A DNA stretch of 64,000 bases from a virus (Duplodnaviria > Caudoviricetes). Below are positions 41,971 through 45,843 of this stretch, piece by piece (positions within the stretch are counted from its first letter, which is position 1; each line of letters begins with the position of its first letter). The position numbers and the translations under genes were made by a program. The DNA lies in IMG/VR virus record IMGVR_UViG_3300020037_001957, positions 13,626 through 77,625 of that record, one strand, 5' to 3'. The notes below the pieces were generated by a model. The model worked only from the letters and a program-made list of their open reading frames with translations. It had not been told where the DNA came from and made no database searches.

Positions 41971-42224
41971 GAAAATCTGACTTACCATCCCGCGAAGACC
42001 CCGAATACATGGATGAACTTGAAAAAATGCCACGCAACGTCATTTACTTTCTTGGTATATTCATTCTATCAGCCGTGTTTATTTACTGCGCCTACTTAAT
42101 GATGGGAGCTTTAAATCTTATTGTTTCATTATTAGTGATAGGTTCAATATTTGTACTATTTTTGTATATCAGAAAAGGAATATTAACCGCCCGTAAAAAC
42201 AATAAAAATGGGAGAATATCTTAG
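41967..42224 (+). CDS. Two-TM membrane protein
   Basis: Hydrophobicity. Confidence 0.55.
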   Translation: MRKSDLPSREDPEYMDELEKMPRNVIYFLGIFILSAVFIYCAYLMMGALNLIVSLLVIGSIFVLFLYIRKGILTARKNNKNGRIS

Positions 42225-42371
42225 ACCGCCTTACAAAAAGCTAAACAGGGAAACAGGTAAATGGGAGTTAGTAACCCCAACGCCTGTTGAATTTACCACC
42301 GAAAAGGACGTATTCAGGGCAGTTGACGTTAAAACCATAGGAGTTCACAAGAAAACTAAAAAACCAAAGAA

Positions 42372-42761
42372 ATGAGAGAAATTGAAGGAACAATTAAGTA
42401 CAAGATTACCGTGGATGAGAAAACAGGGTGGCATTTAGAATACACCCAAAGCTCAGAGAACGACTTAGCAGTAATGGCTATCGGTCAGCAGCTTATGGAA
42501 TACTCAGAGCAACACTTTGAAGAAACTCTCAAAGACCAATCTCTTTCAACCAAAAGCAAGACATTCTTTAAAGGGAGACTTACCAAGGTACGGGCAGCTA
42601 AATTTGGATTACAACTCATGTGTAGCTATTTAATGTCTGTTATTGATGAATACCATGCTTTTGTGGCTGATAACAAGAAACAACAAGAACCCGCCCCTCT
42701 CACCGAGAAAGAACAGAAAGCTATTTTGGAGATGATGGGTAAAATGGAAGGTAAGGCGTGA
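42372..42761 (+). CDS. Hypothetical protein
   Basis: ORF packing. Confidence 0.6.
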   Translation: MREIEGTIKYKITVDEKTGWHLEYTQSSENDLAVMAIGQQLMEYSEQHFEETLKDQSLSTKSKTFFKGRLTKVRAAKFGLQLMCSYLMSVIDEYHAFVADNKKQQEPAPLTEKEQKAILEMMGKMEGKA

Positions 42762-43129
42762 GATTCGACTTACATTCTCAAATGATTTTAGCAGAGCTTA
42801 AAAACCTCTACGACACAGACGGAAGCTATGGCACTTACCCCACACTGTATGATTTTTTAGTGAAAGAGGAGCATGACTTCGGGATAAGTGATGAGAGGAA
42901 AGGGGAGCTGTGGAAGAAATCAGTGGCTAAATTTAATTTGAATGAGAAGAGAATTATAGCCATTTGGGAGAAGGAAGCGTTAACAAAGAGATTGCATGAT
43001 TATTACAAATCATCTTTGGCGGCTGAATATTTACTCAGAGTAAAGAATGAAACAGGAATGACATTAGACATTAAGGATGAACAAGGAAACAAACTTTCTC
43101 TACTCACTCCGAAACCTTACGAAGAATAA
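42758..43129 (+). CDS. Hypothetical protein
   Basis: GTGA coupling. Confidence 0.55.
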   Translation: MRFDLHSQMILAELKNLYDTDGSYGTYPTLYDFLVKEEHDFGISDERKGELWKKSVAKFNLNEKRIIAIWEKEALTKRLHDYYKSSLAAEYLLRVKNETGMTLDIKDEQGNKLSLLTPKPYEE

Positions 43130-43204
43130 TGCGTATAAAGTGGTAGATAACGTTTTGCAGCTACCAGAAGGGCGGGATTTTAACAACAAAATAAACTTAG
43201 AAAG

Positions 43205-43465
43205 ATGAACAATAATTTAACCACAAATGCTTCTAACGAAGCCGAAAGACCCGCCTTTTTGGTAGGTGCTGTTATAGGTAGTATTTTTAGGTGGGGTTTC
43301 AGAATTATAAACTGGAATCACTTTAGGATAAAAGCACATAATGGCAAACCAAGAATAAAGCGGATAATTAAATTGAAAGGATTTAGAACGGCTTTGATTG
43401 AAGAATATAATGGTAACAGATGTACTTCTCGTTTTTACTGGCGGGTCGGCAAATATTACCTATAA
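43205..43465 (+). CDS. Cassette-borne hypothetical protein
   Basis: Starts inside hairpin 1 (AFLVGAVIGS is the translated right arm); stop overlaps next ATAAC. Confidence 0.5.
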   Translation: MNNNLTTNASNEAERPAFLVGAVIGSIFRWGFRIINWNHFRIKAHNGKPRIKRIIKLKGFRTALIEEYNGNRCTSRFYWRVGKYYL

Positions 43466-43515
43466 CGGTTTGCGGCTAAACTCTCGTTATTTTTAAACAC
43501 TAAAAACTAAATAAT

Positions 43516-43704
43516 ATGGCAGGAATTAATTTTACAGATGAACGTGAATATGCACCTAAACTCAAATTTAAAAATAATGGAGTTTTAGCTGCTGTTATAA
43601 GTTCGGTTTGCGATTGTGAACCACACACTTTTTATGAATGGGAAAAGGATGAGAATAAATGTAGTCAATGTGGTAAACCGATATACGAGCAAACTGACTT
43701 ATAA
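43516..43704 (+). CDS. Cassette-borne small Cys-rich protein
   Basis: Starts in hairpin 2 (GVLAAVISS); CxC...CxxC; stop in next ATAAC. Confidence 0.5.
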   Translation: MAGINFTDEREYAPKLKFKNNGVLAAVISSVCDCEPHTFYEWEKDENKCSQCGKPIYEQTDL

Positions 43705-43845
43705 CTACTCGATATGCGTAATTTTTTGTAATTTAATTTATTGATAATCAATATTTAATTTTACAAGGCATAATTTAGTCGTTAGTAAGAAGTTAAACAA
43801 AAGCAAGCCAATAGACTGTAAATCAATAATATAATTTACAAAGAC

Positions 43846-44079
43846 ATGAGAGCAGAAATTAAGTCAAAATGGTGGTCAGAAAAACTACAAATTGGCATAA
43901 CAGAAGATAAGGATGTTTATATAATTATAAAAGGAAATCCTGTTAAACTAAAGAAAGAATTTCACATGAACAGACCTCATTATAGAATACCAGGAACGTC
44001 TAAAAGATTTTCAGATTTAACCATAAATAAAAACTCTAAATTAGAGGAAAAAATTATTGTAGATTTTCTACCTTTTTAA
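43846..44079 (+). CDS. Hypothetical protein
   Basis: ORF packing; ends 'LPF'. Confidence 0.55.
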   Translation: MRAEIKSKWWSEKLQIGITEDKDVYIIIKGNPVKLKKEFHMNRPHYRIPGTSKRFSDLTINKNSKLEEKIIVDFLPF

Positions 44080-44093
44080 TAGTAACACAGCCA

Positions 44094-44444
44094 ATGAAAA
44101 CAATTAAAGAAAACGAATACTTCCAAGTGGGGGAGACAATCTTTCAATACGTAATTGTTGAAGGAAAGCATAAGCTAATCCCTACAAAGAAAGTAGTGAA
44201 GAAAGTCTTTACACCCCCAACACTCGACCAAGTGAAAGGATATTTTGCCGATGAAGGTTACACTGAAGAAACCGCAATCAGAGCATTTAACCACTACGAC
44301 AAAGGTAATTGGCACGATGCCAACGGCAAACCTGTTAAGAATTGGAAACAAAAACTCTATACCAACTGGATGAAACCCGAAAATAAAATATGCCAACCAC
44401 AAGCACCACAACCACTAAAAAGAGAAGGAGAGTTTTTATTCTAA
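44094..44444 (+). CDS. Replication initiator/helicase-loader-like protein
   Basis: 'FTPPTLDQVK.YF...F..HY...NW...G..VKNWK' domain; directly before DnaB. Confidence 0.65.
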   Translation: MKTIKENEYFQVGETIFQYVIVEGKHKLIPTKKVVKKVFTPPTLDQVKGYFADEGYTEETAIRAFNHYDKGNWHDANGKPVKNWKQKLYTNWMKPENKICQPQAPQPLKREGEFLF

Positions 44445-44445
44445 T

Positions 44446-45843
44446 ATGAACACCAATCTAATTGACATCGAATACAAATTACTAGGAGCTTACATGACAG
44501 CCCCCGAACTGTTTAATGACGTAGAACACCTTGTCAAAGCAAATATATTTACCACGCCTATCACAAAGTCTGTATATGACATTGTTAAAGAATACCACGA
44601 CAAAAACATACAGTCGGACAGCGTTTTGCTGTGGAACGCTCTGATAAAAAAAGGATTCTCCCAAGTAGATTGCTCTCAAGTTGCCCTGTTAGAATATCCA
44701 TCTCACCTACCATCAATCATGGTTAAGGAATATGTTATTGACCTGTTTAATCAATCCATCGGCAGATATTTATACCCCATAATGCAAGCTCAGTTAAAGT
44801 CTAACGACCCAATGAGCGCCATGCTTACACTTAAAGACGCTATTCTCAATATTGATATGGTAGTCAATAATGTAAGCAGAGAGAAAGGGATATACAAGCA
44901 GTTTGATGAAACGATACAAAGGATAATAGACCTTAAAACAAAGGTTATAGAGAGGGCGGGATTCAGTTGGGGCATTCCATCACTTGACTATAAAACTCTT
45001 GGCATAGTGCAAGGTATTAACGTAGTGGCGGCTGATAAAGGAGGAGGAAAGTCTAGCCTTGTAATTAATATTATCGTGGAGAACGTATTTAAGAGTGGTA
45101 TTCCGCTTCTATTCTTCTCAATGGAGATGACCGCAATAGAAGTGCTAACAAACATAATTGCCAACATACAACGCATCAACTCAAAAGCCCTCAGAACAGG
45201 GCAAGTTGACGACAATGAGATTAAGACAATAAAAGAAATAAAGAATAAGCTAAACGAGTCCTTCGTAATTGATGAAACAGGCGGTATAACTTGGGAATAC
45301 TTCGAGAGCAAGGTTAAAGCTCACAGAAAGAAACATAAGATTCCCGCAAATGTTACCATGCTCGTTGTATTAGATTACTTAGGGCTGATGAAAAACAGCG
45401 CAGGAGAGTCGAGAATGAGTAAGGAAGAGAAAATTGAGCAGATATGTACAGAGCTTATGAGAATATGTAAGAATGAAAACATAGCGCTCGTTAAATTAGC
45501 TCAGTTTAGCAGGGAAGCAAGCAGAAGAGGAAACGATACATTTAATGTAAAAACAGATGAAGATAGATTAAAAGCCCTGCGCCCGAAGATGAGCGACCTA
45601 AAAGGTTCGTCTGCCATTGAGAGTAATGCCGTTACAATTCTAATGCTCTATCGTCCCGAATATTATGGAATACTGCAATCTAATGGAACTGACTTTAGAG
45701 AACTTTGCGAGATAAATATAGCGAAGGGAAGGTATGTAAACCCCGGACCCGTTTACGCTAAGTTCCAAGGTAAATACAATTTATTTGAGGATTACATATT
45801 ACCCGACAGTGACATTAAGACCGATACAGAACCAAGTTTTTAA
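44446..45843 (+). CDS. dnaB: Replicative DnaB-like helicase
   Basis: AADKGGGKSS Walker A, FFSMEM, VVLDYLGLM, LAQFSR, SDLKGSSAIE, INIAKGR. Confidence 0.92.
   Translation: MNTNLIDIEYKLLGAYMTAPELFNDVEHLVKANIFTTPITKSVYDIVKEYHDKNIQSDSVLLWNALIKKGFSQVDCSQVALLEYPSHLPSIMVKEYVIDLFNQSIGRYLYPIMQAQLKSNDPMSAMLTLKDAILNIDMVVNNVSREKGIYKQFDETIQRIIDLKTKVIERAGFSWGIPSLDYKTLGIVQGINVVAADKGGGKSSLVINIIVENVFKSGIPLLFFSMEMTAIEVLTNIIANIQRINSKALRTGQVDDNEIKTIKEIKNKLNESFVIDETGGITWEYFESKVKAHRKKHKIPANVTMLVVLDYLGLMKNSAGESRMSKEEKIEQICTELMRICKNENIALVKLAQFSREASRRGNDTFNVKTDEDRLKALRPKMSDLKGSSAIESNAVTILMLYRPEYYGILQSNGTDFRELCEINIAKGRYVNPGPVYAKFQGKYNLFEDYILPDSDIKTDTEPSF

Follow-up and report, generated by a model that had tools for sequence, protein, structure and literature searches.

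Clusters of attC sites without an integrase (CALINs) have already been published for phages: Qi et al. (2023, PMC9892861) described them in 17 phages. One of the sites in that work, P12002L_attC1, was called an attC by HattCI (Table S3), and it was the only phage site tested for which no IntI1 recombinants were verified. On the bacterial side, Bacteroidota are listed as having integrons detected (PMC8618304), and another paper places them among the clades previously found without integrons. In the paper describing the Flavobacterium phages considered below, hairpins go unmentioned, and the presence or absence of methylases is linked to host range. The closest phage analogue of the locus presented here is the PeSL cassette of T4 (Arbiol et al. 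2010, PMC2839356; PMC4122927), which contains promoter and terminator motifs and acts via homologous recombination.

The window, a stretch of 64,000 nucleotides, comes from a complete, circularly permuted phage genome of 77.6 kb (121-bp end overlap, 37% G+C). Its + strand carries two attC-like hairpins, element 1 (P1, 43147-43275) and element 2 (P2, 43462-43598), in the stretch that separates a 123-aa gene (42758-43129) from the gene for the DnaB helicase (44446-45843). Both start with ATAACG and finish with GCTGTTAT, and their long arms are complementary; more fully, they begin ATAACGKTTTGCRGCT and end GSTGCTGTTAT, the inner arms being unlike in sequence and paired in both. Element 1 is made of xTAACG, a 4-nt bulge, a stem of about 20 bp, an A-rich loop of about 71 nt and a GTTAT end, and element 2 has a 26-bp AT-rich inner stem. 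The + strand of element 1 folds at -42.5 kcal/mol (z -5.0 against shuffles), compared with -32.8 for the - strand. For element 2 the + strand value is -31.4 kcal/mol (z -3.2), and the - strand again folds less well. With the covariance model introduced below they score 107.7 bits (E 7e-22) and 60.3 bits (E 1e-11), respectively. Complementary arms, folding beyond shuffles and model matches together establish that the two hairpins proposed in the initial annotation are real. Its description of the phage as crAss-like is unsupported; among cultured phages, no relative of the DnaB exceeds 27% identity.

Each hairpin runs into a small open reading frame. ORF A (86 aa, 43205-43465) and ORF B (62 aa, 43516-43704, with a CxC...CxxC motif) have their sole methionine in the loop of element 1 and of element 2, respectively, translate the right arm of that hairpin and stop at the TAA of the next ATAAC (43463-43465 and 43702-43704); the starts in the loops, the translated arms and the stops are as first annotated. 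No match to Pfam or PHROGs was found for ORF A, ORF B or the 77-aa ORF further downstream (43846-44079), nor did tblastn find a homologue of ORF B among the fetched loci.

From indels between two related loci (L036 and L053) and between Flavobacterium phages, detailed below, we infer that the unit is a hairpin with its downstream ORF body: cassette 1 would span 43147-43461, with its crossover resolved no finer than within TAACG, and cassette 2 would span 43462-43701. Both units are closed by a second set of arms. GTTAT and the 11 nt 3' of element 1 (Q1 left arm, 43271-43286) face 11 nt and the ATAAC of element 2 at the end of the ORF A body (Q1 right arm, 43451-43466), 16 nt that are 94% complementary. 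Likewise, GTTAT and the 12 nt 3' of element 2 (Q2 left arm, 43594-43610) pair, with one bulge and one G.T, with 43691-43706. This right arm consists of 11 nt and the ATAAC (43702-43706) of a terminal half-site, ATAAC followed by TAC, which ends the array where attI would stand. The Flavobacterium phage arrays show a like ending, xTAAC followed by TACAAT. A third, degenerate hairpin had been placed at 43701-43785; this stretch has no model match and a weak fold (z -2.5), and it reduces to the half-site, that is, xTAAC with the closing arm of the second cassette. The covariance model detects no hairpin downstream of the half-site.

Directly before the first site lies a mini-ORF of five codons (43129-43146, + strand). 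Twelve of its bases, TGCGTATAAAGT, equal the left arm of a short element at the homologous place of a relative (L209:3386-3444), and this match suggests that it is probably the relic of an older element and not a gene. At the other end, between the half-site and the 77-aa ORF, an AT-rich region (43725-43842) contains nested inverted repeats (43725-43745/43822-43842 and 43726-43745/43747-43766) and a 32-nt direct repeat (43735-43766/43810-43841), and could represent an attI-like region or a promoter/operator.

Elements 1 and 2 belong to a large family of attC-like hairpins in Bacteroidota and their phages. Its formula reads xTAACG, 4-nt bulge, variable stem, loop, stem, T, GTTAx, and both window elements, like essentially all members, contain xTAAC...GTTAx. 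A search with the conserved ends only, set 90-120 nt apart (a 31-nt range), matched 74 IMG/VR loci and at least 120 bacterial genomes; the bacterial matches listed are nearly all Bacteroidota (Chitinophagaceae, Flavobacteriales, Cytophagales, Pedobacter, Hymenobacter, Algoriphagus and Bacteroidales). Element lengths peak at 126-132 nt, narrower than the 31-nt range searched. In an alignment of 70 elements, compensatory double changes occur in 15 of the 24 predicted pairs, confirming that the arms covary. The covariance model built from this alignment gives 267 matches in phage loci, in co-oriented arrays with a spacing of 250-800 bp and up to 15 sites per phage; bacterial arrays reach 45 sites. 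The family ranges from 51 to 190 nt, and since 51-nt versions occur, the long loop is non-essential. Strand asymmetry arises in the stem from two near-invariant G.T pairs, a conserved mismatch and a 4-nt bulge (KTTT) on one side only; these are not the canonical G/T extrahelical bases.

The cultured phages bearing elements are Flavobacterium and Polaribacter siphoviruses. In Flavobacterium phage vB_FspS_hemulen6-1 there are at least 15, one before nearly each gene of the early operon, and a DNA methylase CDS of its deposited annotation begins inside a loop. Polaribacter phage P12002L has no covariance match with default filters and, with filters off, weak or short matches only. One of these is the published P12002L_attC1, a 51-nt member of the present family situated between two methylase genes. 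It is the only family member that has been put to experiment, and its lack of verified recombinants with IntI1 counts against an integron reading.

The commonest cargo of the phage arrays (for instance L205:6055-11492) consists of N6/N4 and C5 DNA methylases: 20 loci together have 24 members, and hemulen6-1 has four consecutive ones. In the loops of the elements of about 128 nt, such as window positions 43177-43248, a motif of the CAC(A/T)AA type recurs at intervals of about 20 nt, in phage and bacterial copies alike. Phage and bacterial loops differ in their content of A (49% vs 37%) and in the presence of an ATG (87% vs 53%). A near-identical 128-nt element is also shared by metagenome-assembled genomes of different Bacteroidota families (L086, L157, L104, L145, L094 and L151, with assignments to Chryseobacterium, Daejeonella, Bacteroidales and Flavobacteriaceae), which implies that one cassette or site passed between them horizontally not long ago.

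With its terminal inverted repeats, sharply defined ends and numerous copies, the family could also be taken for MITE- or REP-like transposable hairpins or for ordinary terminators. We hold such an origin to be very improbable: near-identical copies sit between unrelated flanks, target sites are not duplicated, all units inserted in the compared phage loci include an ORF with no hairpin-only insertion polymorphism among them, no T-run directly follows the stem, and no transposase was found in the genome. Moreover, the same family makes long, recombinase-headed arrays in Bacteroidota chromosomes. No Bacteroidota -33/-7 motif is seen by eye in the conserved ends. A promoter of that kind, or a single-strand (Frpo-like) one, was rejected for lack of a fitting motif by eye, and its strand would be wrong.

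Consecutive elements are related through their flanks. The outermost base x is complementary to the x of the neighbouring element in 89 of 95 consecutive pairs, and it is often mismatched with its own partner. When the 14 nt after one element are set against the 14 nt before the next, 10.9 of the 14 positions pair, compared with 6.8 for random pairs and 6.7 for an element's own flanks. Every inter-element segment thus has a closing helix of its own that prolongs the hairpin stem. By analogy with integron cassettes, this pattern can be read as the signature of recombination inside their GTT/AAC core. In the phage arrays each segment is filled by one sense ORF with a median length of 94 aa. In 30 of 117 cases this ORF terminates at the TAA of xTAAC, and in another 31 at a TAG or TAA located 12 nt earlier in the same frame. 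The first ATG lies within the loop in 45 of 87 cassettes. The conservation of the right arm as a conserved peptide (..GAVI..) was rejected, as the reading frame through the arm differs among members.

The composition of the paired positions is strongly skewed. Model-aligned P stems contain 436 G.T and 21 A.C pairs, and at two of their pair positions G.T is found in 146 and in 143 of the 149 elements. The cassette-closing Q helices, whose selection was neutral to pair type, give 114 G.T and 20 A.C. The wobbles single out one strand as the folding one, in the window the + strand. The phage arrays have it as the gene-sense strand (113 vs 12), and so does the window. In bacterial arrays the genes lie on the opposite strand (69 vs 2), in the order gene then site known from classical integrons; the same strand nevertheless folds better (-32.1 vs -26.9 kcal/mol) and shows 49 G.T to 6 A.C. 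The integron rule, with the site 3' of the ORF and the folding strand antisense, therefore holds in the bacterial arrays and is reversed in phages and the window. Since the same strand is favoured even where it is antisense to the genes, the structure is not merely an mRNA feature. The explanation common to phages and bacteria would be a folded single strand of DNA, as with the bottom strands of attC sites.

This bears on whether the hairpins could be RNA-level cis elements alone (RNase III-type processing sites, mRNA stabilisers or translational-coupling stems) with no part in gene movement. In its favour, the folding strand of the phage elements is that of the mRNA, G.U pairing is conserved, 61 of 117 stops fall at the base of the hairpin (+1 or -11), and the stems, with 25-30 bp, have sufficient length for RNase III. 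Still, we judge this explanation improbable, given the identical strand asymmetry where the element is antisense to genes, the loopless 51-nt forms, and, as described next, precise cassette indels and a linkage to a recombinase. An Rfam scan of 42000-45000 with E up to 10 returned noise only.

Gain, loss and replacement of cassettes can be followed in close relatives. Loci L036 and L053 are >99% identical save for a block of 1137 nt, both junctions of which lie in xTAACG. The cultured Flavobacterium phages sniff9-1 and sniff9-2 are 100% identical over 7421 and 4192 nt (11.6 kb), their sole difference there being one hairpin-ORF unit of 439 nt with ATAACG on both sides. Phages sniff9-2 and snork6-2 differ by a unit of 342 nt, at ..CTTGCTTATAAC, and between hemulen and sniff all block replacements break at xTAACG. 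Over all loci, homology breakpoints accumulate at element starts, and none begins at an element end and runs downstream. The initial annotation had put the crossover between G and TT; the position found, within the 5' TAAC(G) of the folding strand, is on the complement of that point.

Positions 43130-44093 of the window (the two cassettes, the AT-rich repeats and the 77-aa ORF) are missing from the syntenic relative L211. The site is empty there: only 2 nt separate the homologue of the 123-aa gene from that of the 116-aa gene, after which comes DnaB. Relatives L209 and L210 have other short elements or cassettes at the homologous place, and in L001, whose DnaB is 61% identical, rearrangement leaves the site uninformative. 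The boundaries recognised in the initial annotation are therefore the ones at which relatives vary.

Exchange is also seen at the other end of the hairpin. L016, L036, L052, L043 and L030 contain near-identical copies of element 1 set between unrelated flanks, and copies of this element give the same N-terminus of 23 residues to unrelated protein bodies in five phages. Conversely, the ORF A body is 67% identical in L060 and stands there behind a different hairpin. Like hairpins and unlike ORF bodies joined exactly between GTTA and x indicate that exchange takes place at this junction too. A second exchange point is then needed, which integron chemistry restricted to the bottom strand does not provide, and this speaks against the integron model.

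Neither the window, for which the lack of an integrase had been noted, nor the complete 77.6-kb genome encodes a tyrosine or serine recombinase, and two further complete array-bearing phage genomes have no tyrosine recombinase either (G000, G002 and G005 in all). Bacterial arrays have one at their head: a Xer-like protein of 350 aa, its gene co-oriented with the cassette genes (Flavobacterium G008, Pedobacter glucosidilyticus G006, G010; 11 of 13 bacterial loci having a homologue). It passes NF040815 ("tyrosine recombinase/integron integrase") with 228.7 bits and stays under the cut-off of TIGR02249 (214 bits, cut-off 265). It aligns continuously, end to end, with XerA (4a8e, 5hxy), and with VchIntIA in two pieces only (residues 8-182 and 242-318). 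Where IntI has its specific insertion of 59 residues, it has 17, so that the IntI-specific domain is absent. A phage homologue of 264-277 aa, 40% identical, is encoded directly 3' of the last element in five distinct phage loci, always in the orientation of the cassettes (L024:173-1006, L031:5344-6144, L073:3169-4002, L078:1393-2193 and L019:1719-2513).

We now propose that the hairpins are Bacteroidota-wide attC-type, structure-specific sites, and that a hairpin with the small ORF after it forms a mobile cassette, with a Xer-like protein as the likely catalyst and, in phages, the loop as a portable start; we give this reading a probability of roughly 0.6. One DNA strand, here the + strand, would fold from an xTAAC/GTTAx base through a G.T pair and the 4-nt bulge into the variable stem, and would serve in single-stranded form as the substrate. 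Exchange would occur within the 5' TAAC(G) of this strand, most likely between TA and AC, which makes the moving unit the hairpin plus its downstream segment. The bases after GTTA, which pair with those before the next TAAC, would belong to that cassette. The likely catalyst would be the Xer-like tyrosine recombinase found at the head of arrays in Bacteroidota chromosomes and also encoded by some phages; as the present phage lacks it, it would come in trans from the host or a co-infecting element. Phage cassettes have the gene orientation opposite to that of integrons, which sets the hairpin ahead of the ORF in the mRNA, and their A-rich loop would have been taken over as a portable translation start comprising a leader, the ATG and about 20 codons.

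The main rival of this proposal is exchange at the same structures with no dedicated recombinase. The hairpins would be module boundaries, recombined at their short conserved ends by the general functions of the phage (Erf/exonuclease/NinG-Rap), by copy-choice or by replication slippage, as proposed for T4 PeSL (PMC2839356); selection would keep the junctions that preserve the fold, and the main role would be early-gene expression from an insulated, A-rich initiation loop. In many element-bearing phages the genes next to the arrays do include those for Erf, NinG/Rap and an exonuclease-like protein, the complete phages are devoid of a tyrosine recombinase, and exchange points are found at either end of the hairpin. 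The loops, with 49% A and 11% G and the start codon in 45 of 87 cassettes, suit a role in expression. The P and Q helices juxtapose successive TAAC repeats, which favours slippage: deletions could arise in this way between short direct repeats of 6-12 nt that the hairpins bring together. Yet the crossovers lie in only 5-6 identical bases beside unrelated hairpin sequence, which is very little homology for general recombination, and the bacterial arrays of the same family have integron geometry and a tyrosine recombinase at their head. A role in expression also fails to explain the strand bias on the non-coding strand in bacteria. Altogether, we find such a recombinase-independent origin unlikely, though clearly less so than the other alternatives.

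The integron-like reading of the initial annotation is thus largely supported by boundary variation, covarying arms and family arrays headed by a tyrosine recombinase. It holds for the cassette geometry; it does not extend to the phage folding strand, which is gene-sense and so of reverse polarity, nor to the recombinase, which is Xer-like and without the IntI-specific domain.

We also consider possible, at slightly less than even odds, a wider version of the same proposal: Bacteroidota and their virulent phages would share an integron-like system run by a Xer-type recombinase without the IntI-specific domain, in which phage cassettes are reversed, the hairpin becomes a portable initiation module for any gene body joined at GTTA, and anti-defence genes such as DNA methylases are swapped ready to be expressed. 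If true, Bacteroidota phages would routinely remodel their early anti-defence gene sets by integron-type cassette exchange, a recombination site would be reused as a translation start, and a system working without the IntI-specific domain would bear on the origin of integron integrases from Xer recombinases. Culturable phage-host pairs (the Flavobacterium LMO6/LMO9 phages) exist for direct tests of cassette movement.

In comparison with known systems, the family resembles integron attC sites and CALINs in its imperfect palindromes with AAC...GTT cores, variable stem and length (51-190 nt) and one favoured folding strand. The bases that follow GTT are part of the adjacent cassette, the arrays are made of small ORFs, often DNA methylases, and the bacterial order is gene then site with a tyrosine recombinase heading the array. 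Contrary to attC, the conserved ends are much longer (xTAACGKTTTGCNGCT / GCTGTTAx), the place of the canonical spacer and extrahelical bases is taken by two near-invariant G.T pairs and a 4-nt bulge on one side, and complementarity runs 12-16 nt past the core. In addition, the phage ORFs are inverted and start inside the site, and the recombinase has no IntI-specific insertion.

The Flavobacterium chromosome G008 (C1:2398839-2445565), with 45 co-oriented elements in 45 kb directly after the recombinase gene, has the look of a superintegron. It is comparable to the VCR arrays of Vibrio and differs from them in phylum, in the co-orientation of the recombinase with the cassettes, in the missing IntI insertion and in the site consensus. 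With the PeSL cassettes of T4, the present elements share conserved stem-loops before small variable early phage genes, at the boundaries of indels and replacements. Unlike PeSL, they have no evident promoter, and they possess covarying stems, cassette-closing flanks, a bacterial chromosomal counterpart and an associated tyrosine recombinase. This recombinase, in turn, resembles archaeal and bacterial XerA/XerC-type proteins in its alignment with XerA, and it passes NF040815; whereas Xer acts on duplex dif sites in chromosome resolution, here the gene heads arrays of cassettes.
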